From Chloroflexota bacterium (lineage in GTDB: Bacteria; Chloroflexota; Dehalococcoidia; Dehalococcoidales; UBA2162), in contig JACQGQ010000048.1 in the NCBI GenBank assembly GCA_016199495.1, positions 1-48,932 of the forward strand: a DNA stretch of 48,932 bases. The letters run 5' to 3'. Positions 1,280 through 20,150 of the stretch are shown here, one piece after another. Position 1 is the stretch's first letter. The number at the start of each line of letters is the position of its first letter. Made by a program: the position numbers and the translations under genes. The notes beneath the pieces were generated by a model. That model had not been told where the DNA came from, made no database searches, and worked only from the letters and a program-made list of their open reading frames with translations.

Positions 1280-1370
1280 ACCTCACCCCCTTTATCCCCC
1301 TCTCCTTCAAAGGAGAGGGGGAAGAAAAAGAAGAGGGCTACCGCCCTCTTAGACCCCCCTTCCGGTTCGA
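1280..1370 (+). repeat. Palindromic repeat, left half (hairpins A+B), copy 1
   Basis: ACCTCACCCCCTTTATCCCCCTCTCCTTCAAAGGAGAGGGGG, then AAGAGGGC-TACC-GCCCTCTT; nearly identical to 18968-19061. Confidence 0.9.
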
Positions 1371-1584
1371 ATCCAATGTGGGCTACCAATTGGATTTGAA
1401 CGAAGCACAGTGAAAAAGCTGTGTTTTGTGTTTTTATTCTTGACTTAGCAACAGTGGTCGGAAACATTTGTGGTAAGACATTCCATTTTTCGTCGAAAAG
1501 TATTATTATATTGGTAAAATATAGAAAGTCATTGTTAGGGAAGTAAGAACTAGAATATCAGTTGTTTGCTCTAGGCTATAAGCA

Positions 1585-2646
1585 ATGAAGGACGAAATTA
1601 AATATCAGTTTCGGCTTATTGAGGGTGAGGCGAATATAAGCAAAAAATTGCCCTCTCCTTTCTTTAAGACTAATCTGGGTAAAATATATTTAGGCGATTC
1701 TATAGAATTGATACCATCGCTGGAATCTGAATCAGTTGATTTAATAATGACTTCTCCCCCATTCGGTTTGGTTCGTAAGAAAGAGTATGGAAATGTTGAT
1801 GCTGATGAATACCTTGAATGGTTCAGGCCTTTTGCCAGAGAGTTTCATCGTATCCTGAAAAAGACAGGCTCTTTCGTAATTGATATTGGAGGGGCTTGGA
1901 TACCTGACCAACCGACGCGTTCGCTGTACCATTATGAACTTTTAGTAATGCTCTGCAAAGAATTCAATTTTCATCTTGCACAGGAGTTTTTTTGGTGGAA
2001 TCCTTCAAAACTGCCTACGCCAGCGGAATGGGTAAATATTCGACGTGTCAGGGTCAAGGATGCGGTTAACTGCATTTGGTGGCTATCAACTACTCCCTGG
2101 CCAAAAGCGAATAACCGAAGAGTACTTATTCCATACAGTGAATCAATGAAGGGACTCCTCCAAAACGGCTACAAAGCAAAACTGAGGCCAAGCGGACATG
2201 ATATTAGTAAGAAATTTTCCATAGACAACAAAGCATCAATTCCACCAAATTTGATTGCAGTTGCCAATACCGAGAGTAATTCAGCCTATCTGCGATATTG
2301 TAAGGCACACGGTCTCAAGCCAAATCCAGCTAGGTATCCTGCTGCATTGCCAGAATACTTTATCAGGATGCTCACAGACGTTGGCGACATGGTGGTTGAC
2401 CCATTTGCTGGGTCATGCGTAACTGGTGAAGTCGCAGAGAGATTGAGTAGAAAGTGGATTTGTTGTGAAATTGTGAAAGAGTATATTGAAGGCGGGGTAT
2501 CAAGATTTCGAGGAGACTTATATAATGGGAAGATGAAGGTGCCATCATATACTATATCTCACCCTTCAGTTCTCTGGAATGGAATCGAGAATGATGAACC
2601 ACTTTTTAGAGATGGTGGCAGAAAGCGACCCACAAAAGAGAAATGA
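1585..2646 (+). CDS. Site-specific DNA methyltransferase, beta class, probably N4-cytosine (M.PvuII-like)
   Basis: Catalytic motif IV TSPPF is N-terminal and SAM-binding motif I DPFAGS is C-terminal. Confidence 0.92.
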   Translation: MKDEIKYQFRLIEGEANISKKLPSPFFKTNLGKIYLGDSIELIPSLESESVDLIMTSPPFGLVRKKEYGNVDADEYLEWFRPFAREFHRILKKTGSFVIDIGGAWIPDQPTRSLYHYELLVMLCKEFNFHLAQEFFWWNPSKLPTPAEWVNIRRVRVKDAVNCIWWLSTTPWPKANNRRVLIPYSESMKGLLQNGYKAKLRPSGHDISKKFSIDNKASIPPNLIAVANTESNSAYLRYCKAHGLKPNPARYPAALPEYFIRMLTDVGDMVVDPFAGSCVTGEVAERLSRKWICCEIVKEYIEGGVSRFRGDLYNGKMKVPSYTISHPSVLWNGIENDEPLFRDGGRKRPTKEK

Positions 2647-2660
2647 AAGGTTAGTTTTTT

Positions 2661-3674
2661 ATGCCTGCGGTTAGGCCGTCTGTTCTAGTGACTTCAATTC
2701 TGGATGCGATTCAGCAATCCGGGGGCTCTGTTGTTTATTTATCAAGGTCAGACCAGGCACACCCGCGTGAATTTCTTGTCGAATATCTGGATGAGAAGTT
2801 CTCCGTTTGGGTATATATCTGGACACTTACCCATGGAGGAAGAGTATCACTACCTAACGAGTATCGGATTCAAATAACGTCTGTCAGTTCACCGTTACGT
2901 TTGAATCCAAGTGGTTATACGGTTCTTATGGGGTTTTACCCTGACCTCGGAATGTTTGCAGGATTTGACCTTAGACGGCATCGAACATTTACGACAGGTT
3001 CTCCATCAGTACAAATCAGCATACGTAGCATAAATGAAGCTCTTCAGAATGGGCTGGCCTTCAACACAAAGACTAACCTAGAAATTGCTGTAGCAGTTCG
3101 ACCAGACCAGTTTTTAAACTATGTTCGTAGCGCGGATGCTCTACATAAGTACGGAAATGATGTGCAGACAATGAGGTTACTCGAACGGGCAGCAGAAGCA
3201 CAGGAGATAACACAGCAAGACATAGCGGAACTAGCTAGAGAAAGGCAGACACTAGTTGCAACTGTAAGTCGCTATTCAAGAGATGCAAATTTTCGGCAAC
3301 AAGTGCTGAATGCATACGAGCATCGGTGCGCAGTAACTAGAGCACAACTGAAACTCGTCGACGCAGCTCATATCCTTCCTGTACCATCTGAAAGGAGTAG
3401 TGAGCATATTACCAATGGTATTGCGCTATCACCTACTATGCATCGAGCATTTGATAGCGGACTCATTTTCCTTAATGAGGATTATTTGATGCTATTCAAC
3501 GAGGAAAAAGTCAATGAATTAACTAATGAAAATCTTCATGCTGGATTAAACCAGATGCGAAATATGCTACAAGGGCGAATTCACTTGCCGGCAGACCGTC
3601 GTCAATGGCCTAATACTCGGTTCATAATAGAAGCGAATAGATATAGGCGAATACCAGGTTATCGGGGGAGCTAA
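2661..3674 (+). CDS. HNH endonuclease, putative restriction partner of the methylase
   Basis: C-terminal RDANFRQQVLNAYEHRCAVT...DAAHILP...NGIALSPTMHRAFD (HNH_2 type); starts 14 bp after the methylase stop. Confidence 0.88.
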   Translation: MPAVRPSVLVTSILDAIQQSGGSVVYLSRSDQAHPREFLVEYLDEKFSVWVYIWTLTHGGRVSLPNEYRIQITSVSSPLRLNPSGYTVLMGFYPDLGMFAGFDLRRHRTFTTGSPSVQISIRSINEALQNGLAFNTKTNLEIAVAVRPDQFLNYVRSADALHKYGNDVQTMRLLERAAEAQEITQQDIAELARERQTLVATVSRYSRDANFRQQVLNAYEHRCAVTRAQLKLVDAAHILPVPSERSSEHITNGIALSPTMHRAFDSGLIFLNEDYLMLFNEEKVNELTNENLHAGLNQMRNMLQGRIHLPADRRQWPNTRFIIEANRYRRIPGYRGS

Positions 3675-3787
3675 TCGATACAGAAATTTCGTTAACCTTT
3701 TGTCAGCCGACAATTCAGAGCAAACACTAACCTGAAAGTTCTTTCTTTCGTCCAACTTGTTCAACCAAAAATATCTCAAACTAACAG

Positions 3788-3875
3788 CCAGGTGTGAAGA
3801 GGGGCGAAGCCCCCTCTTTTTTATTCCTCCCCCTTCCCCTTATCAAGGGGAAGGGGGACACAGGGGGATGGGGTT
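3788..3875 (+). repeat. Palindromic repeat, right half (hairpins B+C), copy 2
   Basis: CCAGGTGTGAAGAGGGGCGAAGCCCCCTCTT...CCCCCTTCCCCTTATCAAGGGGAAGGGGG...GGGGGATGGGGTT; nearly identical to 20067-20150. Confidence 0.9.
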
Positions 3876-3931
3876 ATATAAATTAGGGGGGTGAAGTTTA
3901 TGAGATAGACATCACATCTCAGACTAAGAGT

Positions 3932-3992
3932 TGACTTCCTCACTTAATGGTGTGTATATTTGTCAAAACCCCTGGCTTATATTTGTCGAAAC
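3932..3992 (+). promoter_or_regulatory. Putative sigma70 promoter and direct-repeat operator of the MFS gene
   Basis: TTGACT-N17-TATATT. The -10 overlaps the first of two TATATTTGTC(A/G)AAAC repeats (3955-3969, 3978-3992). Confidence 0.45.
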
Positions 3993-4074
3993 TAAGCTAC
4001 TCTCGACACTCATAGCCACCAGAGCTAAGCTTTTTGTGGATGACGCATAAGCTTATCTGAAGAGAGAGGCTTGC

Positions 4075-5397
4075 TTGATTAAGAGAAGGAGATTCCCCAG
4101 GATATTTTTCGGTTGGTGGACAGTTCTCGCCAGCAGCATTATAAACCTCTGGGGACTGGGCTACCACCTTTACGGCATCTCGGCGTTGTTCAAACCAATT
4201 GCCTCTGAGCTGGGCTTCAACCGGACAGTAACATCGGTCGCTGTCGCTATTAACCGGCTGCTCGGTGGCATAGAGGGACCAGTGGCGGGCGGGCTCACCG
4301 ACAGATTTGGCCCGAAGTGGGTCGTCTTTTTCGGTGTCTTCCTTTTGGGTCTCGGCCTGATACTAATGTACTACATAAACTCGCTCTGGGCTTTTTATGT
4401 TGCCTGGGGAGTTATAATGGGGACAGGTGGCAATATCGCCCTCATGCTACCGATGGATAAGGCAATAGCAAACTGGTTTGTCAAGCAAAGAGGCTTAGCT
4501 CAAGGCATCAGATGGGTGTTTCGCGGGCTTTCCGGGGTGCTGGTGTTGCCCCTTATTGCCTGGCTGATAGTTACTCAGGGCTGGCGGATGGCCTGTCTGA
4601 TTGGCGGGATAGTCATGTTGGTTGTCGGACTGCCTCTTGCCTTCTTTTTCTTTAAACGGTACCGACCGGAGTACTACGGGCTACTGCCCGATGGCGCCAG
4701 GGTGGAGGAAGAACAGGCCAGAGACACCAGCCAAATGATAGACCGGGGTATAAAGTATGCCGCTGAGGTCGAGGAAGTGGAGTTTACTCTGAGGCAGGCA
4801 TCAAGAACACCGGCCTTCTGGCTGCTAATTGTCGCCTCTACTGTCCATGGTTTTTCGACGACAGCTATTGTCACCCACAGTATACCTTTTTTCACTGATA
4901 GAGGGATTGACCCACTCAGGGCGGCGGGCATATTGGCACTGATGGCATTAGTCAGCATTCCCTCCAGATTTGTTGGTGGACTTATCACCGACCGTCTTAA
5001 GAAACAACACTTACGATTTATAATGGGGACAACCTATCTGCTAGAAGCTGTGGGGATGACTGCCTTCCTGCTAAATCAGAGTATCGCCATGATTTATGTC
5101 TGGTTTATTCTCCGTGGCATTGGCACGGGAGGAGGCCTGGTCCTGGCATCTCTATTAAGGGCGCGCTACTTCGGCCGGAAAGCCCTCGGTTCCATCGGTG
5201 GCTTCTCATCGATGTTCTTAACACCCGTCGGCATGGCCGCGCCTATCTATATCGGCTATGTCTATGATAGCACCGGCAGCTATATTAATGCCTTCACCTT
5301 ATTAGCGGCACTACTCGCCGTTGGCGGGGTCATCACCTTTTTTATCCTGCCCCCCAAACCCCCAGCCCAGGTGACCGATATCCGTAAATTCGTGTGA
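4075..5397 (+). CDS. MFS transporter
   Basis: About 12 hydrophobic segments; motif A-like GGLTDRFGPK and GLITDRLKK. Confidence 0.92.
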   Translation: MIKRRRFPRIFFGWWTVLASSIINLWGLGYHLYGISALFKPIASELGFNRTVTSVAVAINRLLGGIEGPVAGGLTDRFGPKWVVFFGVFLLGLGLILMYYINSLWAFYVAWGVIMGTGGNIALMLPMDKAIANWFVKQRGLAQGIRWVFRGLSGVLVLPLIAWLIVTQGWRMACLIGGIVMLVVGLPLAFFFFKRYRPEYYGLLPDGARVEEEQARDTSQMIDRGIKYAAEVEEVEFTLRQASRTPAFWLLIVASTVHGFSTTAIVTHSIPFFTDRGIDPLRAAGILALMALVSIPSRFVGGLITDRLKKQHLRFIMGTTYLLEAVGMTAFLLNQSIAMIYVWFILRGIGTGGGLVLASLLRARYFGRKALGSIGGFSSMFLTPVGMAAPIYIGYVYDSTGSYINAFTLLAALLAVGGVITFFILPPKPPAQVTDIRKFV

Positions 5398-5584
5398 GAA
5401 CTGGAGCTTTTTATACTAAGGTTAGAAGACATTATCTTACATGTATCTGAACCGGGCTTAGCCGATTCGTGAGGTTCGGGGAGATACGGCATCAACCGTA
5501 TTGCGTCAAATCAAACTGTTACCGAAGACCCCCCTCCTTGACTTACTATCGGAAAATGCTTAAACTAATCATAGGAGTGAGAAG

Positions 5585-5815
5585 ATGCCGATATATGAGT
5601 ATGTTTGCCCTGATTGCGAGTCCAGATTTGAGCTATTACGCCCGCTAAGCCAGGCGGCTGAGGGGGCTGCCTGCCCCGGCTGCCATCAGAGCGCCGAACG
5701 GGTATTATCTGTTTTTGCCTGCTTCTCCACGAATGAAAGCGGGCTAGCTGCTACGGTAGGGGGAAGCTCCTGCTCTAGCTGTGGCGCCACCAGCTGCGAT
5801 ACCTGCGCTGCATAA
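5585..5815 (+). CDS. FmdB-family zinc-ribbon protein
   Basis: MPIYEYVCPDC...FE...CPGC with a Cys-rich tail; AGGAG RBS. Confidence 0.9.
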   Translation: MPIYEYVCPDCESRFELLRPLSQAAEGAACPGCHQSAERVLSVFACFSTNESGLAATVGGSSCSSCGATSCDTCAA

Positions 5816-5821
5816 TTACCC

Positions 5822-5846
5822 TAGGCGATGAGCGCCTACATATTTT
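5822..5846 (+). terminator. Possible terminator hairpin
   Basis: TAGGCG-ATGAG-CGCCTA just after the stop, followed by a weak T tract. Confidence 0.35.
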
Positions 5847-6019
5847 AAGGCATTGTGGCTGGCAATCCCCACCCACCACACTCGCCCCTTGTTGTGTTGT
5901 TGTGTGGGTGAATGTAGTGTGAATGATAGTTGAACTCCAAAGAATAGTCTACCAGGGCTAGAAACCGATTCTGTGCCTTCTCAGAGCTATCCCACCAGAC
6001 CGCCTCGCTCGACTTTAGT

Positions 6020-6658
6020 TTAGCCTGAGTGCGCTAAGAAAGTCGGGAACTTAAGGCGGTCACGGAGCTTGTTCACCACCCTCCTGACGCCGGGCAGACG
6101 AAGGAGCAGGAGCAAACCGACGGCGGCGGCGTAAAGCAGTGGTTCACGTCTGTCGGCCTTAACCAGCAGCAGAAAATGAAACACGGATAACAGGGCGGCG
6201 GGATAGACCAACCAGTGTAATCGTTCCCAGTTTCTACCCAATCGCTTTATCCATCCCCTGGTAGAGGTTATCGCTACCGGCAGCAGTGCCAGCCAAGCGA
6301 TAACACCGGCCCAGATATAAGCTTTCCCGAAAACATCCTCTCGGAGCAAATTGAGGTTAAAACCGTAATCCAGCCCGATAAAGTTCAGCGTATGCAGGCA
6401 GGCATACATAAATCCGTAAAGCCCCAGCGGGCGCCGCAACCGCGATACCGACTTAAGCCCGAACATAGTGTTTAGCGGTGTGCAAGCCAGGGAAAGTAGC
6501 AATAGAATCAGGCTATAGCTACCAGTCCGGAGTGTGATTTCCTGTATCGGATTGGCGGTTAATCGGTCTTGCCTGAAATCCCAGATGAGTATTGCCAGCG
6601 GCAGCAGGGATACAATATGGGTAAGTATCTGGAGCCAATGTGTCTTCAGCCTGCCCAT
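6020..6658 (-). CDS. msrQ: Methionine sulfoxide reductase heme-binding subunit MsrQ
   Basis: Ferric-reductase-like membrane protein: RRPLGLYGFMYACLH, LAITS-like VAITS, WERLHWLVY; coupled to msrP. Confidence 0.93.
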   Translation of the reverse strand: MGRLKTHWLQILTHIVSLLPLAILIWDFRQDRLTANPIQEITLRTGSYSLILLLLSLACTPLNTMFGLKSVSRLRRPLGLYGFMYACLHTLNFIGLDYGFNLNLLREDVFGKAYIWAGVIAWLALLPVAITSTRGWIKRLGRNWERLHWLVYPAALLSVFHFLLLVKADRREPLLYAAAVGLLLLLRLPGVRRVVNKLRDRLKFPTFLAHSG

Positions 6659-7716
6659 TAGAAGAATTTTCTCAAGTCCATCCCCTGGTAGAGGTGGGCG
6701 ACTTCCTCGGCGTAGCCGTTAAAGGGCAGGGTCAAGCGGCGTCTAACTTCACCAATGCGGCGCTCACTGGACTGGGACCAGCGGGGGTGAGGCACATCTG
6801 GATTGACATTGGAGTAGAAGCCATATTCGTGGGGAGCGGCGGCCATCCACAGAGAAGTCGGCATTTCGGCCACCAGGTCAATTTTCACGATTGACTTGAT
6901 ACTCTTAAAGCCGTATTTCCAGGGCACAACCAGACGGACCGGGGCGCCACTCTGCGGTAACAAAGGCTTACCGTAAATACCGGTAGCCAGCAGCGTCAGC
7001 TCGTGCATAGCCTCATCCAGACGCAGTCCCTCAGCGTATGGCCAGGCGTAGGTTTTACTATGCTGGCCCGGCATCTGCCCCGGGTCATAAAGCGTCTCAA
7101 AGCGTACATACCGGGCCTGGGCTGTTGGCTCGACCTCCCTCAATAGCCTGGCGAGAGGAAAGCCGAGCCAGGGAATGACCATAGACCAGGCTTCGACACA
7201 GCGCAGACGATAAATTCGCTCTTCCTGGCCGAACTTTCGCCGCAGGTCATCAATGTCAAAGGTTTGCGCTTTGTTGACCATTCCCCCCACCTCTACCGTC
7301 CAGGGTGAGGTCTTGAAATCTCGTGCCAGGCGGGCAACGCCTTTTTTCTCGGTGGTGAACTCGTAAAAGTTGTTGTAATTTACGATGGAGTCGTAAGGTG
7401 TCAGCTCATCTCCCAGCTCGTCCTTGGCTGGCGGTGCCAGGTCGGTATCATCGGTGACCCCCGGCTCGTCCTTACCTGACGGTACCAGGTCGGTATTATC
7501 GGTGACCCCCGGCTCGCCCCTGGCGGCCGGTGTCAGTTCAACATTATCGCTGCCGCCCAGACCCGACAGAAAATCCTGCTTGCGGCAGGCACTGAGAAAC
7601 AGGGCGCTGGCAACCAGGGCACTAATGCCCGTCAGGAACTTGCGACGGGACAGGAACTGGTGACGGGAAAGGTAAAGATGTTCCGGAGTGATTTCAAACG
7701 GGCTTATGTTTTCCAT
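6658..7716 (-). CDS. msrP: Methionine sulfoxide reductase molybdo-subunit MsrP
   Basis: EITPE...SRRKFL Tat motif, [50 protein letters not shown]. Confidence 0.96.
7416..7516. repeat. 48-bp in-frame tandem duplication in the msrP linker
   Basis: Units 7416-7463 and 7464-7511 encode EPGVTD(N/D)TDL(V/A)P(S/P)(G/A)KD twice. Confidence 0.9.
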
Positions 7717-7872
7717 TTAACCTTCTACCATTCAGGTGACTTACGGTTAATTTAAGTTTAGCCTAAATAAAAGTCCTTTACAAATATGTGTGGGGACAGG
7801 TCACTATGATTTTGAAGAGAGAAACCTTCACCACTGATATGATACAGCCGGTTCATTCCTGCCCCTAATATA

Positions 7873-9078
7873 TCAAAAAGGCAGATGTTTTCGGGTAGCT
7901 AGCTCATAAGCAATTTGTCCCTCAATATCTAACAGTGACTTCAACTTATCGTAATCCAGGGTTTCCGGATTGTCCCCGGCCGTATGATAAAAAATACCCA
8001 GATTCCCCATGAGCCAGACAACCGGGATAGCCCCTTTGACCTGGAAAGGAACATGGTCTGAAACTGGCATTGGCTCGGCACCGTATTTAACCTCATAGCC
8101 CAGTTGCTCAACCACATTTAAGGCGAAGGCACGAATTTCTTTAGTTGTCGCCAGCTCGAATGTGAAGTCATACGGGTTTCCCAAGGTACCAAAGGTAACC
8201 ACGGCCTTGATATTTGGCAGTTCATCGGCATGCCTATCGACGTAAGCGAAAGACCCCCAGAAAGGACCAATCTCTTCGACGCCAAACATAATAGCCTTAA
8301 TGGTGCGTCTGGATTTCCGCTTGCTAAAGATACGTAGCAACTCCAGAAGCGCGGCACACCCGGCCGCATTGTCAGCGGCATGTTTCCCTAGATTGAAACT
8401 ATCGTAGTGAGCGTTTAAGACTATTTGTTCATCGGGGATAGTTGTCCCGGGAATAGTCATAATAATATTGGAGGAAGTCTTTTTTGAGAATGCACCATTC
8501 AGGCTAATACGTAATTTGAGTTGCCCGCTACTCATCAACGTTAGAAGCTTGCGGCCAACAGATACGGGAACCAGTACAGCCGGAATTTGTCCAGCTTCAC
8601 GATTCATTGTAGCCGTACCGGCGCGACAGAGATTGTCAGGGGCATCGGTAAGAATGACAACACCGCTAGCACCATGCTGCTGAGCCAGAGAATAAGCCAG
8701 GGAGGTACCGATAGTCTCGGCCAGCACAATCTTACCCTTAATTGCTATGCCCTGCTTACTGAAAAAATCAAACCCCTGCCTGGTGCCATAACCCACATAT
8801 ATCACTTCTCCTTCAGCCACACCACTCCCAGCGTAATGCAACGGAAAATTGTCCAGAGCACCTTCAACCGGTGCCAGAGTCTCCAGCTTGGAGCTTAGCG
8901 GAAGATAGTGCATATATTCGAACTCTTCCAGCTCAACATTGACCCCTAATTTTTCCCCTTCAGACACAATATATTCACGACTCTTGATTTCTCCCTCGGT
9001 TCCAGCATACCTGGGCGAACGGGCACAAATCTCCTCAACGTAGGTTTTAATATTCTTTTTGCTGACTGATACGGGCAT
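7873..9078 (-). CDS. M28-family aminopeptidase with PA domain
   Basis: RYAGTEGE, AHYDS, ADNAAG, GVEEIG, SDHVPF and YHTAGD zinc-ligand motifs. Confidence 0.9.
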   Translation of the reverse strand: MPVSVSKKNIKTYVEEICARSPRYAGTEGEIKSREYIVSEGEKLGVNVELEEFEYMHYLPLSSKLETLAPVEGALDNFPLHYAGSGVAEGEVIYVGYGTRQGFDFFSKQGIAIKGKIVLAETIGTSLAYSLAQQHGASGVVILTDAPDNLCRAGTATMNREAGQIPAVLVPVSVGRKLLTLMSSGQLKLRISLNGAFSKKTSSNIIMTIPGTTIPDEQIVLNAHYDSFNLGKHAADNAAGCAALLELLRIFSKRKSRRTIKAIMFGVEEIGPFWGSFAYVDRHADELPNIKAVVTFGTLGNPYDFTFELATTKEIRAFALNVVEQLGYEVKYGAEPMPVSDHVPFQVKGAIPVVWLMGNLGIFYHTAGDNPETLDYDKLKSLLDIEGQIAYELATRKHLPF

Positions 9079-9239
9079 TAAAGCGTACCTCCTATATTTT
9101 GGGGCAAGTTTGTCAGATAATACAGATAATATCTGCTGGAATAAGAATCGTCAATATCACTGCAGGGACAGGTCAGATTTTGTTAATTCTTTCCTATTCC
9201 CGCCCTATTCCCGCGTGCGGAACTTTCGGCTATTTTCAA

Positions 9240-9269
9240 TAGCCACTCTTTCTCTAGCCACTCTTTCTC
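9240..9269. repeat. 15-bp perfect tandem duplication
   Basis: TAGCCACTCTTTCTC twice, intergenic. Confidence 0.75.
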
Positions 9270-9313
9270 TTAGAAGTTTTTTCCGGGCACTGCCACAAGC
9301 CAGGAGGTAAATC

Positions 9314-9679: not shown

Positions 9680-9735
9680 GGTTACCTCCTTAATATATCA
9701 TACGTTGCCAGGGAATCTCGTCCTATCAGGTAAGT

Positions 9736-10859: not shown

Positions 10860-10883
10860 TGCTCCCTCCCTGGTGGATAACTA

Positions 10884-12325: not shown

Positions 12326-13010
12326 GCTTTAGCAGATAACCCCCAGCCACTCCCCCCAAAATTATGGCTGTACCTGCTGTCGCCAGGGTAATGAACAGGG
12401 TGGCATCATACCAGAAGCCCCGGGGGAAGAGCATTACCAGGTAATCTCGGGTCGGGTCAAGCTGCCAGAAATCATTGGCGAAACTGAGCCAATGAAACTG
12501 CAAAAATAGCTGGTCAAAACCGAGCAGCGTGCCTGACCCCAGGGCCAGCATCAGAGCCAGGGTGAGACTACAGCCACCAACCACCCCCCGGGCCAGCCGC
12601 CGCCAGTATCTTTTCCTTCGCCAGAGGAGACTAATCCCGACATAGCCTGAAGCGTAAATCAGTGTCCCCAGTAAAAGCTGGTAATCCAGCCAGACGAGCG
12701 CTTTGACATCACTGAGATGAATTATCTCCCGTTGGTTAAATAGCGCAAATGGCTGGCTATCCTTGACTACGGTAAGACTGATAGATTCTTCAGCGGAGTT
12801 AAAGTATGAAATCAAGCCTCTGGCCGCCTTGTCCAGTTCTGTTACCGCCAGTCCCGTGCTCCGGCTAATTTCATATCGGGCAAAGCCATATTTATAGAGC
12901 CAGAGACTATTAAACGCCCCGCCGATGCTGGCCGTCAGCAGTAGTACGGGCAGGCTGAGCATAAAAGCCCATTTAGTGGTCGTAGCAAGAATTCTCAATT
13001 CTATCCCCAT
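12300..13010 (-). CDS. TIGR01906/DUF1461 membrane protein (Lit-like lipoprotein intramolecular transacylase)
   Basis: REIIHLSDVK, FDQLFLQFHWLSFANDFWQLDP..DYLVMLFP.GFW. Confidence 0.82.
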   Translation of the reverse strand: MGIELRILATTTKWAFMLSLPVLLLTASIGGAFNSLWLYKYGFARYEISRSTGLAVTELDKAARGLISYFNSAEESISLTVVKDSQPFALFNQREIIHLSDVKALVWLDYQLLLGTLIYASGYVGISLLWRRKRYWRRLARGVVGGCSLTLALMLALGSGTLLGFDQLFLQFHWLSFANDFWQLDPTRDYLVMLFPRGFWYDATLFITLATAGTAIILGGVAGGYLLKLRVSRDLS

Positions 13011-13066
13011 TGAGATTTTATACTATTTCATTCGGGGCAGCGGACTGCGAACAAACCAAGCCTTAT

Positions 13067-13507
13067 TCAGACTTCTTTGCGGCGGATAAAAAGCCAGTTT
13101 TTATCCGCAGTGTGGATTAAAGCATAACTACCTGATAGCTTCTTACCTCTCAACGAGAATTCCACAATATCAGTGGACTCCCTCTTCAAATCAAATTCAC
13201 CCTTGTCCCAGATTTCGACACTACCGGCACCGTACTCTCCTTGAGGGATTTCCCCGGCGAAATCAATGTAGTCAACGGGGTGGTCTTCTACCTTGATGGC
13301 TAGTCGTCGGACACCAGGTTTAAGGGGAGGGCCCTTGGGCACCGCCCAGCTCTGCAGGACGCCACCAATTTCCAACCGAAAATCATAATGGAGATGGGCA
13401 GCCTGGTGTTTTTGGACAACAAAACGGTGTTGCCCTTTATCCTGGTCATCCCTCCAGGGCGGTTCCGGGGTTTTGTCAAAATGGCGCTTCTCCTGGTAGG
13501 TTTTCAA
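13067..13507 (-). CDS. Stand-alone LigD-type 3'-phosphoesterase
   Basis: YQEKRHFDKTPEP, FVVQKHQAAHLHYDFRLE, SWAVPKGP, EDHPVDY, IWDKG. Confidence 0.92.
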   Translation of the reverse strand: MKTYQEKRHFDKTPEPPWRDDQDKGQHRFVVQKHQAAHLHYDFRLEIGGVLQSWAVPKGPPLKPGVRRLAIKVEDHPVDYIDFAGEIPQGEYGAGSVEIWDKGEFDLKRESTDIVEFSLRGKKLSGSYALIHTADKNWLFIRRKEV

Positions 13508-13695
13508 CCTGCCTTTAGCCCTTCAGCACGTTGCTGAGTCGGACCCAGCTAGTGCCACCGTTACTACTATTCTGATGATAGCATAAAAGGAGATGCATGA
13601 GCATCCGTAAAGGTGCCACTTTCCCGGGAGGTGATAAAAAAGAGAGACTCATCGGGGGTGTTTGAAGCTCTGTTCTTGGCGACAATGCCGCCTGG

Positions 13696-14223
13696 CTATA
13701 CTTTTTGAGCTATTAGACTTGCGATAGCCTTTTGCTCCCCAATGATTCCTTCACGGTAACGAAGACAGCGCCAATCACGAAACATGTTGAGCAGCTCATT
13801 ATGTTTCAGCAGGTGGGCGGGGTTCTTTGGCTTCTCAAACTGAGCCTGGTCAATAATAAAGGTTTCGTAGACGACTATTCCTCCCCTCCGTAACCCGTCT
13901 TTAATCTGTGATATCAGCGAGCGCTGCCAATAATTGAAGCAGATAATCACACTATAGGCGTCTTTTTCGATATGGTAGTTACTTTCCAGGTCAGCGACTT
14001 GTGTGCGGATGCTAACGCCGGCCTGCCGCGCCGAGGCCAAAGCCTCATTTACTGCTTCAGGTGATATATCAACGCCGGCTGCGTCAAAACCCATTTTTGC
14101 CAGGTAGATTGTGTTCCGTCCGTTACCCATTGCCACATCGAGGGCTTTTCCTTTCGGTAAGAGTTCGATGTTCTCTACCAGGAATTGGGCTGGCGCCAAA
14201 CTATTTTTCTGATTATCGGTCAT
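13696..14223 (-). CDS. Class I SAM methyltransferase (TehB-like)
   Basis: ALDVAMGNGRN motif I. Confidence 0.85.
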   Translation of the reverse strand: MTDNQKNSLAPAQFLVENIELLPKGKALDVAMGNGRNTIYLAKMGFDAAGVDISPEAVNEALASARQAGVSIRTQVADLESNYHIEKDAYSVIICFNYWQRSLISQIKDGLRRGGIVVYETFIIDQAQFEKPKNPAHLLKHNELLNMFRDWRCLRYREGIIGEQKAIASLIAQKV

Positions 14224-14244
14224 CTCGCCCCGTTGAGAAACGCT

Positions 14245-14859
14245 TCAGGTTGCCGCCAGTTTCTTGGCAATGGTAGCCACATGACGGCCCTGGAAACGAG
14301 CCATAGCCAGTTCGTTCTCACTGGGCAGGCGGCTGCCATCACCGCCAGCAATCGTGCTGGCACCGTAGGGACTGCCGCCGCTTATCTCTTCCAGGGTCAT
14401 CTGGCGGGTCTCGGAGTAAGGTAGCCCCACGATGACCATGCCTAGATGAAGTAGGGTGGTGTGGAAGCTGGTGATGGTCGTCTCCTGGCCGCCGTGCTGG
14501 GTGGCGCTGGAGGTAAAGACACTGCCCACCTTACCGACGAGAGCGTTTTGTATCCATAAGCCACCGGTCTGGTCGAGGAAGTTACGCATCTGGGCGCACA
14601 TATTGCCGAAACGAGTCGGCGCCCCGAAGATAATACCGTCGGCGTCAGCTAAATCAGCCGGTTTGGCTATGGGGATATGAGTGAAGGCTTGACGGGCTTG
14701 CTTTGCTCCCGATTTCTCTAATACCTCGTCGGGAATTAGCTCGGCAACTTGAAGCAGTTCTACCCTAGCACCATCAACCTCCCTGGCCCCTTCCGCCATT
14801 GCCTCAGCCATCCGGTAGATATGACCGTACATGCTGTAAAAGACTACTTTCACTCTCAT
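14245..14859 (-). CDS. wrbA: NAD(P)H:quinone oxidoreductase WrbA
   Basis: [34 protein letters not shown]. Confidence 0.96.
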
Positions 14860-14974
14860 GGCGACTACTCCTTTTGTTTTCTGTTAAGTTGTTGCTTTAT
14901 AAGATAGCGCTTCGAGATAGGAGCGTCAAGCAATGTCAGTGGGCGGCGGTTGCTCTACTATCTCCGATGTGTCC

Positions 14975-15445
14975 TTATCCCCCACTGGTCTGCGGAAAAG
15001 CAACCTCGGTGTAGAGAAATTCCACTCTTTGCTTGTGTTCCAGCTCTTGTGATGCCAACTGCTCAAGCAGTCTTTTCATTTCTCCGGGAGGATGGATGCC
15101 GGCAAGAGCTTGGTACAACTCATGGGAGTGCATTTCCCGGTTGGCGGCCAGCAAGAAAACGTCCTTAAGTTGCATATCAGGCGATATTTCAGGTTGGTCA
15201 AGGTGTTCGGCAATCTTATAATCCAGGACCTGCCCTCGACTCAGTGTGCCCGCCTTAAGCTCGCCCCGCTGATATTGTTCCAGCAGGTTCTGATGCCAAT
15301 TCTCCTGCCGGGCTAATTCCTGAAAGGTATCTTTGGCGACCTGGTCTTTCATTTTTTGGCTCAGGCTAATGTAGAGGAGGCGCGACCCGATTTCTTTCTG
15401 TATCGCCCTTTCCAGGACCTCGTTGAGAGTAAACTGTGTTGCCAT
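14975..15445 (-). CDS. Ferritin-like / rubrerythrin-domain protein
   Basis: AIQKE...QENWH...ANRE...QELEH diiron pattern; no rubredoxin domain. Confidence 0.85.
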   Translation of the reverse strand: MATQFTLNEVLERAIQKEIGSRLLYISLSQKMKDQVAKDTFQELARQENWHQNLLEQYQRGELKAGTLSRGQVLDYKIAEHLDQPEISPDMQLKDVFLLAANREMHSHELYQALAGIHPPGEMKRLLEQLASQELEHKQRVEFLYTEVAFPQTSGG

Positions 15446-15476
15446 GAGATTGCCTCAAATTAAGGTCTGAGTTATT

Positions 15477-15794
15477 CTATTTTGATTTTTCAATGACTTC
15501 CTCGACCCACTTCATAGCCGCACTCATCGTGGGAAAGCCAGCGGTGGTAAAGGCCATCAGTACCGCATGGCGAAGCTCATCGGGTGAGACCCCCTCCTCT
15601 AAGGCTCGCCGGGTGTGTGACCTCACTCCCCCCTCTGAATTCAGTCCTATGGCGATACCTAGTTTTATCAGCCGCCGTACCTTTTCATCGAGCGGTCCCC
15701 ATTCGTGACAATTAACAGCCAGAGCGTCATAAGCTTTAGCCACCTCAGGGAACTGCTGCTTAAACTCCTGATATATTTCGGGTAGGTAGTTCAT
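15477..15794 (-). CDS. Carboxymuconolactone decarboxylase (CMD) family protein
   Basis: GPLDEKVRRLIKLGIAIG...SHTRRALEEG...TTAGFP. Confidence 0.88.
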   Translation of the reverse strand: MNYLPEIYQEFKQQFPEVAKAYDALAVNCHEWGPLDEKVRRLIKLGIAIGLNSEGGVRSHTRRALEEGVSPDELRHAVLMAFTTAGFPTMSAAMKWVEEVIEKSK

Positions 15795-15854
15795 AATATC
15801 CCCCTGTCGTATAAGCCGTTATTTTCCCCCTTTACCCTGGTTAGATTCCGACAC

Positions 15855-16436
15855 TTAAATTTTCCCAACCAGGTCTAGCCCCGGGGTCAGCGTCTCTTCC
15901 CCTGGCTGCCAACTGGCCGGACAAACCTGCTCGGCATGTTCTCTCACGAATACTGCGGCTTGCAGTTTCCGCAAAAGCTCTTTGGCGCTGCGACCAATGT
16001 TGTTGGCATGTATCTCGTAGGCTTTGAGAATACCATCAGGGTCAATGATAAAACTGCCCCGCAGTGAAACTCCTTCTTCTTCGATATAAGTGCCAAATTC
16101 GCGGCAAAGTTTCCCGGCTGGGTCGGCGACCATCAGGTATTTAACTTTTCTGATAGCCGGAGATTGGTCGTGCCAGGCCTTATGAACAAATACTGTATCA
16201 GTGCTTATGCTCAATATCTCGGCGCCCAATTTCTTGAATTCTTCATAATAATTAGCCGCTTCCTCCAGTTCCGTGGGGCAAATAAAAGTGAAATCAGCCG
16301 GGTAAAATATCAAGACCAGCCACTTGCCCCTGTAATCAGAAAGCTTGACTCTCTTTATCTTCTCGTTGTGGAATGCTTCCAGCTCAAGGTCTGGAATCTG
16401 GTGATTAATTTGTACCATTTTTGTCATCTCCTCCAT
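15855..16436 (-). CDS. ahpC: 2-Cys peroxiredoxin AhpC
   Basis: FYPADFTFICPTE and QVCPASW; true start probably 16436 or 16418 from RBS spacing. Confidence 0.95.
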   Translation of the reverse strand: MEEMTKMVQINHQIPDLELEAFHNEKIKRVKLSDYRGKWLVLIFYPADFTFICPTELEEAANYYEEFKKLGAEILSISTDTVFVHKAWHDQSPAIRKVKYLMVADPAGKLCREFGTYIEEEGVSLRGSFIIDPDGILKAYEIHANNIGRSAKELLRKLQAAVFVREHAEQVCPASWQPGEETLTPGLDLVGKI

Positions 16437-16596
16437 TAATTTTTCCTCCTTCATTTAGTCCTGTTATTTTTATCCTTTAGCCAGTCACTGAATAGCGTCA
16501 TCAAGCATGGTCATAGGCAGTCATTGCTGACGGCCTATTGATGACGGCCTGAACCAGGTCAGCGACATGGTCGATTGCTCAACCTCCAGGGCGAAT

Positions 16597-16842
16597 TTAG
16601 TGAATCTTTCTAATGAATTCCTTAACCTGATAATCCCACTCCTGGGATTCCAGTTCCACAGAGGTTCCCTTCGCCTCGGCACAGGCGTTGACATTAATGC
16701 TACCGCCACCCCCCTCAAAGTAGGCGCAGTCGGCAGTCTGATTTTTGACCGCCAGTCCATGGCCCTTAGGGCCGAAGAAATCGACGGCACGTTTGATTGC
16801 TTCCTCAGGGCTCAGCTTGGTTTTTGTCGCTATTTTTAGCAT
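16597..16842 (-). CDS. Hypothetical 81-aa protein
   Basis: Strong AGGAGGAG RBS, protein-like composition, co-oriented with neighbours. Confidence 0.7.
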   Translation of the reverse strand: MLKIATKTKLSPEEAIKRAVDFFGPKGHGLAVKNQTADCAYFEGGGGSINVNACAEAKGTSVELESQEWDYQVKEFIRKIH

Positions 16843-16891
16843 TTTTCTCCTCCTTTTTCACTAATCATACTATAATATGCCATGACAATTC

Positions 16892-17482
16892 TTATGATAC
16901 CTTCTTACCGTGGAACAGCTCGCTCCCGGCACCGGGATAGGCTACTCGCTCCGTTACTGGCGTGGGTGTTTCCACCCTGGGCCACGTCTGTGTTTGAGGC
17001 TCCGCCCCTTCCAGCGTTATCTGAGAAGGTACCTGGTCTCTCATCCGGGGGTTTTTTCGAATATCGATTCCGGGCACGTTGTGGGAAAACTCGATTGGGA
17101 TACCGTTCGGGTCATGGGCATAGATTGAGTGGATAAAACCGTGGTCGATAACATCCGATACGTGAAATCCGGCTGCCTCCAGTCTATCCTTCAGTTGCCA
17201 CAGGTCATCCTCCGATTCAACACCGAAGGAAACATGGTCAAAGATAAAAGGACCGGCCACCGGTCGGCCGTGCTCTTTCTTGGCTACGGCTTCAGTCCCC
17301 GGCCATTCGAAGAAGGCAATAAGGTCACTGTCGGAAAGCTGGAAGAAGTAGTGTCGGTAGCCCGGCCGGCCGAGACCGGCAACGAGTCGCATACCCAGCA
17401 GGTCCCTCCAGAAACGGATAGTCTTATCCATGTCTCCGGTCGCCATTGCCAGGTGATTGACCCCATTAAATTTCATCGTCAC
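16892..17482 (-). CDS. VOC/glyoxalase-family protein
   Basis: GVNHLAM, DHVSFGV, SIYAHDPNGIPIEF. Confidence 0.9.
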   Translation of the reverse strand: MTMKFNGVNHLAMATGDMDKTIRFWRDLLGMRLVAGLGRPGYRHYFFQLSDSDLIAFFEWPGTEAVAKKEHGRPVAGPFIFDHVSFGVESEDDLWQLKDRLEAAGFHVSDVIDHGFIHSIYAHDPNGIPIEFSHNVPGIDIRKNPRMRDQVPSQITLEGAEPQTQTWPRVETPTPVTERVAYPGAGSELFHGKKVS

Positions 17483-17636
17483 ACCTCCCAGCGGACATTT
17501 ACGTCAGGATAGACAGGGTTACCAATTGTCTTAGCCGTATTATCCTGGCTGTCCTGCCGGCTTGTCTGGCTATAATCATAACATTATTAGAGCTTTCTGT
17601 AATTGGTAACAGGCAAGACACAGGAGCAAGAGGAAT

Positions 17637-18101
17637 TTAAGAACTTACCGTTTCACCGAAGGCCTTACCGTAATCATGACAGGCATGCATACCCTCAGAT
17701 GTTTCCACTTTTGTCTCCGGCAGGTTAAACGGCCCCAGCGCAAACGGTTCCATCTTATGTTCCTTCTGCAGAATATCGAAAATGATGGCGGGCGCATGGG
17801 TATCGTGTCTGTAGGCGACATCGTGTGTGTAGGCGCCAAAAGCGCCGCCCAATTTGCCTTCGAGGTTTACCTTTGCTGCTGTCGAGAGGAACGTTTTCAT
17901 AGGTTTGGGCAGGTCGAGCGAAAAGGTGGGAGCACCAAAAATACAGCCATCGTATTCTGTCATCTCGGCAGTATCTTTTATGTCCCCTATCTTCTTCACC
18001 ACGGCCTCGTGGCCGCTGAGACGAACGCCCTCGGCAATATATTCCGCCATCTTCGCCGTCATCCCGGCCAGGCTGAAATAGGCAATAAGCACCTTTTTCA
18101 C
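17637..18101 (-). CDS. Flavodoxin-like protein
   Basis: YFSLAGMTAKMAEYIAEG, GAPTF, KLGGAFGAY. Confidence 0.85.
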   Translation of the reverse strand: MKKVLIAYFSLAGMTAKMAEYIAEGVRLSGHEAVVKKIGDIKDTAEMTEYDGCIFGAPTFSLDLPKPMKTFLSTAAKVNLEGKLGGAFGAYTHDVAYRHDTHAPAIIFDILQKEHKMEPFALGPFNLPETKVETSEGMHACHDYGKAFGETVSS

Positions 18102-18130
18102 GGCTTAGCCCCCTTTTTCATACAGGTCGG

Positions 18131-18709
18131 CTATTTGAGGTTTTTGGTCACGAAATCCCAGTTCACCAAATTCCAGAAAGCCTCTAAGTATTTAGCTCGG
18201 GCATTCCGATAGTCGATGTAGTAAGCATGTTCCCAGACATCGCAGGTCAGCAGTGCCTTCTTCCCTGCCTGTAACGGATTGCCCGCATTGCCGCTAGTTT
18301 CAATGGAAAGACTGCCATCAGGATTCTTTACCAGCCAGGCCCATCCCGAACCAAATAGGGTCGCGGCGGCATTAGTAAATTGCTCTTTAAACTTGGCGAA
18401 TGAGCCGAATTTTTTGCTGATGGCGCCGGCCAGCCCCCCGGAAGGTTCGGCGCCGCCTTTAGGGGAGAGACAGTTCCAGTAGAAAGTGTGGTTCCATACC
18501 TGGGCGGCATTGTTGAAAATGCCGCCGGACGATTTCTGAACGATTTCTTCCAGTGACATCTTCTCGAATTCAGTGCCTTTAATGAGCCGGTTTATGTTGT
18601 CGACGTAGGCCTGGTGGTGTTTCCCGTAGTGGTATTCGATAGTCTCCGCCGAGATATGGGGCGCCAGGGCATTGTTAGCATAGGGCAATTTCGGTAACTG
18701 GTGTTCCAT
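18131..18709 (-). CDS. sodB: Fe superoxide dismutase
   Basis: [20 protein letters not shown] (Fe-type AAQ), DVWEHAYY. Confidence 0.96.
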
Positions 18710-18840
18710 AACTTCCTCCTTTATTTATTAATTTTGGGGTATCAGATATTAGGGACATTATAGTTTTTCCGTAGAGAATCTGTATGTGACTTTTATCTCC
18801 ATCTAATGATAAAGGCAGATACTACTGGTCACCCAGCTAA

Positions 18841-18937
18841 GACTAGCCGTCAGCAGCAGGATGAACAGGCAGAGGATAAAGAGCCATTTAGTGCCGGTAT
18901 CAAAAATCCTCAATTTTATCTCTACTGAGATTTTACA
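18841..18937 (-). pseudogene. Degenerate copy of the 5' end of the TIGR01906/Lit-like gene
   Basis: GCCGTCAGCAG...GGCAG...ATAAA..GCCATTTAGTG...CTCAATT.TATC...TGAGATTTTA aligns with about 12927-13023; the start ATG is lost. Confidence 0.7.
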
Positions 18938-18967
18938 CCGTCAGGGTTAAAAAGAATAGTGTTATCT

Positions 18968-19061
18968 ACCTCACCCCCTTAATCCCCCTCTCCTTCAAAG
19001 GAGAGGGGGAAGAAAATAAAAGAGGGGCGAAAGCCCCTCTTAGACGCCCGTTCGGGTCTGA
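18968..19061 (+). repeat. Palindromic repeat, left half (A+B), copy 3
   Basis: ACCTCACCCCCTTAATCCCCCTCTCCTTCAAAGGAGAGGGGG...AAGAGGGGC-GAAA-GCCCCTCTT-AGACGCCC. Confidence 0.9.
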
Positions 19062-19066
19062 GTTTA

Positions 19067-19984
19067 CTATTCTGTCTTAATTCCGTGTTTCAAAAGCAAG
19101 CGAGGTAGTGTGTCATCAAGGTTCTGAACCTCTTTTTCTGTAAGCTCAATAACGTGAAAGTCATATTTCTTGTAGATTTTAAGTTTCTCCTCTTTTCTAA
19201 AAGAATATTTGGGATCATCGTCAAGACCCCAATACTCTATATAGACTTTGCCCGTCGGAATATAGAAGTCCGAATAGACCTCTTCTTCGACCGGAAGCTT
19301 TCGCTCATAAGCATGGGTTACTTCGGACACGTAGAGCCAGTTGTCAATGAGTAACTCTGCTTTGGACCTGACAAGATGAACATCCGTAGCTCTGAGTTTT
19401 GCTGGGAACTTCTCTCTAAACTCTATGTCATCCTTACTAGCATGTCGAGTCTGGTCTTGGCTTGTGTCTGGTATGTTACCTTTGGCTTCGTTCATGCTAT
19501 TAACAAGTGTCCTATTACCAATGATTGACTCAGGCCAACGTACATAAGGCACGCCAGAGTCCTTAGCTTCGGACTGTACTCCTCCTAATCTTTTTCCCAG
19601 TTCGGTAATTAGCCACCCTTTGAGACCCTTTTTAATCCACCCAAGTTCAGACAGAATGGAGTTGGTTCTGGTCGCAGATATTTCGAAATGTTTTCCTATT
19701 GCTGTGGCAGTAAGGAGAAGCTTCGAGGTATCTGACCGGCTGCCATCTAGTTCCGACTTAAGTGCCTGTGGCCAAACAATGTACTTTACGTATTTGTCAC
19801 CCTGCCTGTAAATGCCACCCTTAAGTTTGCCAGCAGATGTCAAGTCCCAATTATTCGCATTTCTCACTATCAGCCCCATCTCTACCAACTGTTGGAATAG
19901 GACTTGAGAACTCTTTCCTAGCGCTTTTGCCAAAGCCGATGTTGATAGCTCTTTCCCATTTTCAAGCTTGTCACTCATCTGCAT
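19067..19984 (-). CDS. Protein with two winged-HTH/antirepressor-like repeats and a C-terminal PD-(D/E)XK-type nuclease domain
   Basis: Internal repeat LSTSALAK...WDLTSAGKLKGG...YIVWP / LTATAIGK...WLITELGKRLGG...YVRWP; C-terminal RSKAELLIDNWL...YSDFYIP...YIEYWG. Confidence 0.7.
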   Translation of the reverse strand: MQMSDKLENGKELSTSALAKALGKSSQVLFQQLVEMGLIVRNANNWDLTSAGKLKGGIYRQGDKYVKYIVWPQALKSELDGSRSDTSKLLLTATAIGKHFEISATRTNSILSELGWIKKGLKGWLITELGKRLGGVQSEAKDSGVPYVRWPESIIGNRTLVNSMNEAKGNIPDTSQDQTRHASKDDIEFREKFPAKLRATDVHLVRSKAELLIDNWLYVSEVTHAYERKLPVEEEVYSDFYIPTGKVYIEYWGLDDDPKYSFRKEEKLKIYKKYDFHVIELTEKEVQNLDDTLPRLLLKHGIKTE

Positions 19985-20066
19985 TTCTCCTAGAAAGTAT
20001 TATTGTATAGCCATGTTGCTGTGACAATTCGCTGTACTTCTAGAACATTATATCATAGAGTAAAAA

Positions 20067-20150
20067 CCAGGTGTTAAGAGGGGCTTCGCCCCTCTTTTTT
20101 ATTCCTCCCCCTTCCCCTTGATAAGGGGAAGGGGGTCAGGGGGATGGGGT
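20067..20150 (+). repeat. Palindromic repeat, right half (B+C), copy 4
   Basis: CCAGGTGTTAAGAGGGGC-TTC-GCCCCTCTT...CCCCCTTCCCCTTGATAAGGGGAAGGGGG...GGGGGATGGGGT. Confidence 0.9.

Follow-up and report, generated by a model that had tools for sequence, protein, structure and literature searches.

The window analysed here, a stretch of 48,932 nt from a bacterium of the Chloroflexota order Dehalococcoidales, carries two short cargos, a DNA methyltransferase and endonuclease pair and a candidate defense gene, each framed by inverted arms of a dispersed palindromic repeat. Inside the arms lies a site resembling the 3' end of a tRNA, and pads of the same build occur on other contigs of the genome, one empty and the others filled with different genes. 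We consider it likely, if well short of certain, that the cargos are mini-cassettes inserted by site-specific recombination at this tRNA-end-like site, and that the recombinase is probably DsiB-like and acts in trans.

The source assembly (G000), a metagenome-assembled genome from groundwater, comprises 1.38 Mb in 91 contigs, with 51% GC and 81% completeness, and the window is its contig C37; below, G### denotes a genome, C## a contig and L### an extracted locus. The comparison set consisted of 24 relatives, whose genomes are incomplete. Half-elements of the repeat were searched by nhmmer with a profile made from 74 oriented half-elements. A scan of metagenomes for the cassette-end motif matched at least 118 contigs from sediments and groundwater, and counts of loci are drawn from the matches listed. 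Read evidence came from Logan unitigs and contigs, including two groundwater runs, X1 and X2, that contain 95% of the query words.

Attachment site and pads in the genome

The unit of the repeat is a ~90-nt half-element composed of a tail (CCTCACCCCC), a pyrimidine-stem hairpin X and a hairpin B. An earlier note on this DNA had described three hairpins, A-B-C, split into A-B and B-C halves around two cargos, and both the sequence and nhmmer bear out that such halves frame both cargos and that a fused A-B-C copy lies at 40725-40863. Because one profile matches A and C on opposite strands, they are the same module in opposite orientations, which accords with the description of left and right halves as imperfect inverted versions of each other.

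In one subfamily of the repeat only, an attachment site of ~50 bp lies between two B hairpins. Directly inside the left B is a 24-nt core, GTTCGAATCCAATGTGGGCTACCA, that copies a tRNA T-arm and acceptor end (GGTTCGAATCCAATGTGGGCTACCA). Directly inside the right B is the right side of the site (AAATATCTYANAGTAAA...), and across the junction the layout is GTTCGAATCCAATGTGGGCTACCA followed by AAATATCT.... The fused copy at 40725-40863 (no strand assigned), an inward pair with one common B, lacks this core and does not represent the empty form. The empty pad lies instead at C64:27904-28127 and consists of A-B, the core, AAATATCTTAGAGTAAAAAACC and B-C, the left and right motifs abutting with nothing between them.

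Four filled pads, C37:1275-3880 (locus 1 of the window), C9:12055-13791, C17:309-2504 and C60:15107-16297, have the core at their left side and, at their right, another copy of it followed by AAATATC, and in C37:18961-20155 (locus 2) the right side is intact and the left side decayed. The genome thus holds one empty and five filled pads, with cassettes of 1.0-2.4 kb and a cargo GC of 0.39-0.45 against 0.48-0.56 in the flanks. The copy of the core at the cassette end is nearly exact in C9 and C17 (TTCGGAATGCTTCCAATGTGGGCTA) and decayed at locus 1 and C60 (GTTCTNTCTNNCGTCCAACTTG...). The cargos at C9, C17, C60 and locus 1 are a ClpP-like SDH protease, two uncharacterised proteins, a GNAT protein and the methylase/HNH pair. 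The proposal that the repeat frames landing sites for foreign genes, mostly defense-like in this genome, was therefore sound, and its restriction of the cargo to nucleases or defense was too narrow, given the GNAT and protease genes here and the diverse open reading frames (ORFs) of the metagenomes. By eye, an R-x4-H motif (…VRCNMFH…), compatible with a HEPN-type nuclease, can be seen in one of the two uncharacterised proteins of the C17 cassette (C17:1639-2304); this protein had no Pfam, PADLOC or NCBIfam match.

The core also occurs in three other genera of the family, and a genome contig collection yielded nine loci, all in Chloroflexi/Dehalococcoidales metagenome-assembled genomes. Two other identities for it were considered and rejected: in Rfam the window matched nothing but tRNA-Asn and six core loci gave no meaningful hit, and the sole match on a viral contig was an unrelated phage tRNA.

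The two window loci

At locus 1, the left arm (half-element A-B) lies at 1275-1359 on the plus strand (nhmmer E 2e-16), and within it hairpin B (1331-1350, minus strand) was picked up by the terminator scan as an intrinsic terminator-like site pointing away from the cargo. The core follows at 1365-1388 (plus strand), with exact copies in C9, C37 and C64. The cassette starts at 1389-1435 (plus strand) with ATTGGATTTGAAC and a terminator-like hairpin at 1400-1429, a start that resembles the trailer after tRNA-fMet and after many metagenome cassette ends. Two plus-strand genes make up the cargo, a type II N6/N4 DNA methyltransferase at 1585-2646 (Pfam N6_N4_Mtase, E 1e-39; PADLOC MTase_II, E 1e-117) and an MTaX1 plus HNH restriction endonuclease at 2661-3674 (Pfam MTaX1, E 1e-24, and HNH_2, E 7e-10; PADLOC HNH).

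The decayed end of this cassette, GAAAGTTCTTTCTTTCGTCCAACTTGTTCAACCA (3734-3767, plus strand), holds the second core copy and aligns with the cassette ends of C60, G011-L029, G013-L165, C9, L038 and L054. The earlier note had seen no target-site duplication; a direct repeat does exist, CCAATGTGGGCTACCA (1373-1388) against CCAACTTGTTCAACCA (3752-3767), 11 of these last 16 nt being identical, and its counterpart at locus 2 is more decayed. The right side of the attachment site, AAAATATCTCAAACTAACAGCCAGGTGTG (3768-3796, plus strand), matches AAATATCTTAGAGTAAAAAACCGGGCGTTA of the empty pad on C64. It leads into the right arm, a reverse half-element at 3795-3880 (minus strand, nhmmer E 4e-17), whose hairpin B (3796-3819) is a plus-strand terminator-like site in the same scan and again points away from the cargo. 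No homolog of this cargo was found in the 24 relatives at E ≤ 1e-40. The MFS gene at the locus belongs to a large paralogous family.

The hairpin B next to the core is a special variant, AAGAGGGCTACCGCCCTCTT, at 1331-1350 of the window, C17:366, C60:15167, C81:22268, L024 and L029. Its loop/arm holds GGGCTACC, an octamer identical to the end of the core, possibly a remnant or else an additional binding site.

At locus 2, the left arm (18961-19049, plus strand, nhmmer E 4e-20) contains a hairpin B (19020-19041) that is terminator-like on the minus strand and sits directly behind the cargo gene. A decayed core, GTTCGGGTCTGAGTTTA (19050-19066, plus strand), is probably what remains of the left side, its similarity to the core being weak. 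The cargo (19067-19984, minus strand) encodes a protein of 305 aa whose N-terminus is of the winged-helix type and whose C-terminus is of the PD-(D/E)xK type; it matches the candidate defense family PDC-S69 over its full length (PADLOC E 7e-104, residues 11-304), and a Pfam match to ANT is weak. Ahead of the gene, a promoter-like site, TTGTCA-17-AATAAT (19999-20027, minus strand), overlaps the decayed cassette-end core GCCATGTTGCTGTGACAA, placed at 20010-20027 by alignment. The right side of the site, ATATCATAGAGTAAAAACCAGGTGTTA (20050-20076, plus strand), is intact and is followed by the right arm (20073-20155, minus strand, nhmmer E 3e-19), whose hairpin B (20076-20096) is plus-strand terminator-like and points away from the cargo.

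Several details given in the earlier note were confirmed on comparing the two loci. The left halves are 98% identical over 49 nt and the right halves 91% over 64 nt, and the same lead-in, CCAGGTGT, precedes both right halves (3789-3796 and 20068-20075). Both cargos are AT-richer than their flanks, with a GC of 0.419 against 0.520 at locus 1 and 0.428 against 0.478 at locus 2, and both encode nucleases, judging from the MTaX1-HNH protein and the PD-(D/E)xK-type C-terminus of the PDC-S69 protein. Neither cargo nor window contains a mobility gene, as no recombinase family and no Y1_Tnp matched on the contig.

Between pad 2 and a prephenate dehydrogenase gene, the interval 20160-20691 (minus strand) encodes a BrnT toxin (Pfam BrnT_toxin) and leaves space for a partner gene, BrnA. 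The synteny of sodB and brnA is not conserved in G002, and a PDC-S69 homolog in G015 (69% nucleotide identity) has no pad framing.

Census of the repeat

The nhmmer census found 166 near-full half-elements in the 1.38 Mb of G000. They include 27 fused inward pairs that share a single B and 16 inward pairs with two Bs, separated by gaps of 1-300 nt and without cargo, and 80 solo halves. No outward or tandem pair occurs at ≤300 nt, against 43 close inward pairs, so the inverted doublet is the natural unit. Since a duplicated B is common without cargo, the second B is not produced by cargo insertion, and the earlier picture, in which duplication of the central B around the cargo marked B as the insertion point, has to be given up. 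Solo neighbors within 3 kb of each other are inward in 8 cases, outward in 2 and tandem in 8 (of 18), an inward excess that is suggestive only. One solo A-B half-element lies in the window at 48699-48787 (plus strand, nhmmer E 3e-17). Beyond G000, at least 16 of the 24 relatives, including members of other families in the order, carry the repeat with 80-100% identity.

The inner side lies ≤150 nt from a contig end in nine solo half-elements, and many BLAST matches to the repeat fall at contig ends. The repeat therefore probably breaks assembly, and pads and recombinase-bearing elements may be under-represented. Two fused copies lie near tRNA genes, that at 40725-40863 ~335 nt from tRNA-Asn (window 40315-40389), and one on C54 (12726-12885 and 12961-13057 listed) 76 nt from tRNA-SeC.

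With so many copies, half-elements might simply happen to flank a horizontally acquired gene, with no mechanistic link between the two. The abundance of the repeat, its 80 solo halves and the modest inward excess among solo neighbors would all suit such chance bracketing, and two inward pairs are read as instances of it: C19:14324-16093 and C24:4800-7438 lack a core and are close in GC to their flanks (0.487 vs 0.503 for C19, 0.507 vs 0.510 for C24), and the genes on C24 look like housekeeping genes. The core motifs speak otherwise. The left motif stands beside 6 of the 88 plus-strand halves and in none of 5000 random 57-nt segments, and the right motif beside 6 of the 78 minus-strand halves and in 17 of 5000 such segments, which settles that the association between repeat and cargo exceeds chance. 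The right motif is present at both right arms of the window and the exact core at the left arm of locus 1, and the motifs pair up at exactly the low-GC loci. Together with the insert boundary in G011 described below, which coincides with the core junction, this largely refutes chance bracketing for locus 1, and we regard it as a very unlikely explanation.

Orthologous pads with and without cargo

The empty pad on C64 has an ortholog in another genus, on contig C129 of G011 (L029), with 73-76% identity on both sides. The left block of alignment stops at the last base of the core and the right block begins at AAATATC. At this junction G011 has an insert of 1434 nt that encodes a 309-aa Fer4_16 iron-sulfur protein and ends in a variant of the cassette end. 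In a third genus (G013), the right arm of a pad adjoins the ortholog of the prephenate dehydrogenase gene next to locus 2 (77% nucleotide identity). Ahead of that arm come a cassette end and, where the window has PDC-S69, an ORF of 395 aa containing a Shedu SduA_C domain. Such empty, filled and swapped alleles are what the earlier note had suggested looking for. In the window, BrnT/BrnA separate pad 2 from the dehydrogenase gene; because the arm in G013 adjoins the gene directly, without BrnT/BrnA, the toxin-antitoxin pair looks like a separate insertion beside the pad.

As the C64 and locus 2 pads are orthologous across genera and their cargo is absent or different, it is the cargo that moved and not the pad. 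This bears on a second explanation, in line with the earlier note, in which a tail-to-tail unit would be mobile together with its cargo and a transposase would use the half-elements as its terminal inverted repeats, like a REPIN or a cargo flanked by MITEs (transposable elements of the miniature inverted-repeat type). The repeat has MITE-like traits (inverted arms, multicopy fused copies of ~140 nt, 166 half-elements) and the REPIN trait of palindromic units arranged as inverted doublets, and its high identity across relatives could reflect activity. Against these stand pads that stay in place in other genera without the cargo or with a different one, and cassettes that have the same ends but no half-element in ~90% of the metagenome cases listed. 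The transposase family expected of a REPIN/RAYT system, Y1_Tnp (PF01797), was not found in G000 and was found in only 5 of the 24 relatives, although at least 16 of them carry the repeat; the REPIN/RAYT reading of the earlier note fails on this count. We give little credence to a composite carrier of this kind.

On two contigs of G014, C57 and C69 (L003 and L008), ~110 nt of left flank are near-identical up to the core, after which the sequences diverge completely. A mixed population in which one pad has two cargo alleles could account for this, as could a duplication of the flank.

Cassette pool in metagenomes

In the metagenome contigs the cassette-end motif is part of a conserved stretch of ~78 nt. 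Four classes of sequence follow its final ACCA: a tRNA-trailer-like sequence (ATTGGATTCGAAC), often with a terminator; a cassette start of the ATTTGGTAATAACGTTACC type; a further cassette, forming a tandem array (L031, with three junctions, and L023, L063, L110 and L139); and a B-C half-element, the last in 10 of 108 ends, counting those of the matches listed whose downstream sequence was long enough. Whole pads with a cassette of 1.1-1.3 kb are present on L116 and L034. The cassettes are thus found without the repeat as well, most of these ends having no half-element after them.

A true tRNA-fMet directly precedes a cassette start in L054, L057 and L131. This points to the 3' end of a tRNA as the natural target, with the pad core as its look-alike.

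The 83 ORFs nearest to the cassette ends (loci listed) include hydrolases, MazF, MarR, a serpin, a C5 methylase, transporters, PDC-S18 and PDC-S32, and no family occurs more than twice among them. In content the pool resembles integron cassettes; in recombination site and enzyme it does not.

A weaker conserved stretch (…GGGGACTCGAACC…), which resembles a reversed tRNA T-arm, lies 60-120 nt upstream of the 78-nt end at many metagenome loci. The possibility that the 78-nt end is an ORF on the reverse strand was dismissed by eye, its variants containing stop codons.

Candidate recombinase

A large serine recombinase (Resolvase, Recombinase and Zn_ribbon_recom domains) is encoded near cassette ends at L038, L039, L047 and L054/L138, the last two identical in sequence. 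It is the only mobility-related family among the most widely common ORF clusters, tied at five loci with an ATP-binding transporter-like cluster. In L038 the recombinase stop codon lies 65 nt before the motif, and in L039 and L054/L138 the 3' end of the gene, on the reverse strand, overlaps the junction; in L047 the gene is ~1.5 kb from the motif, whereas those at the other four loci abut the junction. Homologs at 44-66% identity are present in the core-bearing relatives G014, G011 and G013. At the recombinase loci of the relatives (L173-L180), all on short contigs, neither an exact cassette-end motif nor a core within three mismatches was found. Among these recombinases, the one closest to those of the metagenomes (62-66% identity) is encoded at L174, on contig C154 of G014; a tail and half of a hairpin X of the palindromic repeat follow it directly at 2500-2545, and the position at which L038 has the cassette-end motif is without it.

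The same insertion of cassettes could be the work of a tyrosine recombinase, either integron-like, of the Xer/dif-module kind or a tRNA-targeting integrase. The 3' ends of tRNAs are classic targets of tyrosine integrases. Tycheposons offer a precedent for such targeting (bioRxiv 10.1101/2020.12.28.424599). G000 itself has two Phage_integrase matches, one on C14 and one on C34 beside tRNA-Val, and tandem single-gene cassettes resemble integron arrays. No tyrosine recombinase family recurs near the cassette ends, however, among the at least 118 loci listed, where the recurrent type is serine; by inspection the junction is without the integron core GTTRRRY; promoter-like sites are present within the cassettes themselves; and the layout matches that of the DsiB islands. 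A tyrosine enzyme is in our view an unlikely candidate.

Proposed mechanism and points against it

In the site-specific insertion that we favor, a circular cassette (attP) would recombine with a pad (attB) exactly at the core junction, and each inserted cassette would add another core copy, located at its far end. Both window loci are such filled pads; their cassette ends have partly decayed, and they are perhaps no longer mobile. The enzyme would most likely be a large serine recombinase of ~540 aa, supplied in trans by an autonomous relative. All four B hairpins of the two pads belong to the best-ranking terminator-like sites of the 19 kb scanned and are oriented away from the cargo, and promoter-like sites precede both cargos. 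As outward terminators these hairpins could shield the neighboring genes from cassette transcription, and we infer, from sequence features, that the repeat arms may insulate those genes.

Several observations weigh against this proposal, some of them concerning the enzyme. Only 5 of the at least 118 loci listed carry the recombinase, and its likeness to DsiB consists in length and domain architecture. In G000, at 81% completeness, tblastn with two of the metagenome recombinases returned no homolog (E > 0.7). The sole ORF of that genome with Resolvase and Recombinase domains, C82:11202-12812 (536 aa in an open frame of 542 aa, the Resolvase match starting at profile position 37), is only 28-29% identical to the pad-associated recombinases and is likely a decayed, unrelated element. 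Recombinase families otherwise matched in G000 only as the Phage_integrase hits already mentioned.

Other points concern the site. None of the tRNAs or tmRNAs that ARAGORN predicts in G000 ends with the core, L024, L025, L027 and L030 contain no tRNA, and the 3' end of tRNA-fMet (…TCCAACCCCCGCTACCA) deviates from the core in its acceptor part. An origin of the core from ssrA was considered and rejected, the tmRNA 3' ends of 10 relatives (...ggagttcgactctcccccgcctccacca) giving no match. The 78-nt cassette end does not behave as a structured RNA either: an alifold of 110 sequences on both strands gave only an invariant hairpin of 4-6 bp, with no covariation.

The remaining points concern movement. 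The AOR and MFS genes lie on different contigs in all 24 relatives searched, so there is no orthologous comparison for locus 1. The cassette ends have decayed to 11 of 16 identical positions at locus 1 and further at locus 2, which makes current mobility doubtful. At neither window locus does a Logan contig span an empty allele, the assemblies breaking at repeats. A joint from 1389 to 3846 that might have been such an allele comes from the paralogous C64 pad, and the remaining joints come from other copies of the repeat. Two hints of movement stand on the other side. The unitig depth of the cargos is lower than that of the flanks, at 22.8 and 17.8 against 34-37 in X1 and 29.9 and 29.7 against 50-57 in X2; the resulting ratio of 0.5-0.65 fits the presence of the cargo in about half of the population, although GC bias could explain part of it. 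Runs from two further studies contain pieces of cargo 1 with 96.7-98.4% identity and pieces of AOR/MFS with ~85-88%, a difference that fits horizontal spread of the cassette.

Relation to known systems

Dehalococcoidales have small, streamlined genomes and yet exchange genes for organohalide respiration and defense. To our knowledge, this swapping has so far been explained only by the single ssrA hotspot of Dehalococcoides. If the proposed insertion is correct, there would be a second and much wider cassette pool, spread over at least 118 sediment and groundwater contigs of the metagenomes, whose units are cassettes of one or two genes and whose docking sites number several per genome, framed by pairs of outward-terminator-like repeats. 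An abundant intergenic repeat of an uncultured lineage would thereby gain a concrete function. If the serine recombinase and the ~50-bp site work as proposed, they would form a compact new integrase/att pair and a natural 'insulated landing pad'.

Set beside REPINs, REP doublets and bacterial MITEs, the repeat is similar in consisting of short, GC-rich intergenic palindromes, in forming inverted doublets, and in its high copy number and conservation across related genera. It differs in that neither G000 nor most of the repeat-bearing relatives have a RAYT (Y1_Tnp), and no parent insertion sequence turned up. At the level of titles and abstracts, the literature yielded no description of an attachment site for a different recombinase inside a REPIN- or MITE-type repeat, and nothing on palindromic repeats or REPINs in Dehalococcoidia.

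With integrons the system shares small, functionally diverse and mostly single-gene cassettes, a conserved end site, tandem arrangement and a recombinase encoded elsewhere. Unlike integrons, it has no IntI or attI, its junction falls between ...GGGCTACCA and A... without GTTRRRY, and its 78-nt end contains no covarying hairpin; its cassettes have their own promoter-like sites, and the associated recombinase is of the serine type. Tycheposons of Prochlorococcus (Hackl et al., bioRxiv 10.1101/2020.12.28.424599) likewise place cargo at tRNA genes and leave partial-tRNA repeats, and their new copies arise beside short tRNA segments elsewhere in the genome, presence and absence are heterogeneous in cultures, and a minority use large serine recombinases. 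They differ from the present cassettes in their size of ~10-20 kb, their own integrase and replication genes, mostly tyrosine recombinases, and the lack of a palindromic frame.

The closest parallels are with the recombinase-driven ssrA islands of Dehalococcoides, of which the present system looks like a small-scale version with many sites. McMurdie et al. 2011 (BMC Genomics 12:287; PMC3146451) describe these islands as low-GC and tandem, bounded by direct repeats (~20 bp) of a tRNA-like gene's 3' end, with a 15-bp motif, TTCAGRSMGMRKCCA, ahead of the repeat. DsiB, a serine recombinase of 540 residues, is encoded there on the reverse strand and overlaps attL; 15 islands have no integration module, and recombinase-less islands are read as cis-mobilizable elements. 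In the same bacterial order, the cassettes described here are bounded by direct repeats (C9, C17, C37 and C60), form tandem arrays (L031, L023, L063 and L110) and have an upstream motif, TTCGGAATGCTTCCA, that matches TTCAGRSMGMRKCCA at 11 of 15 positions. At the metagenome loci L039 and L054/L138, though not in the 81%-complete G000, a ~540-aa serine recombinase gene on the reverse strand reaches over the junction with its 3' end. The differences lie in the target, which is seen here to be tRNA-fMet and not ssrA, judging from the tmRNA 3' ends of 10 relatives; in the units, which are 1-2.4 kb with one or two genes here and multi-gene with a six-gene integration module there; and in the sites, of which at least six are dispersed in G000, inside a palindromic repeat, against one locus in Dehalococcoides.

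A broader scenario, which we offer tentatively as one possibility, is that a dispersed repeat took up the attachment site of a serine recombinase and spread it across the chromosome as terminator-insulated docking bays. These would draw on a community pool of integron-like mini-cassettes for defense, transport and metabolism that is exchanged between Dehalococcoidales lineages, so that many sites would do what an integron or ssrA island does at a single locus.

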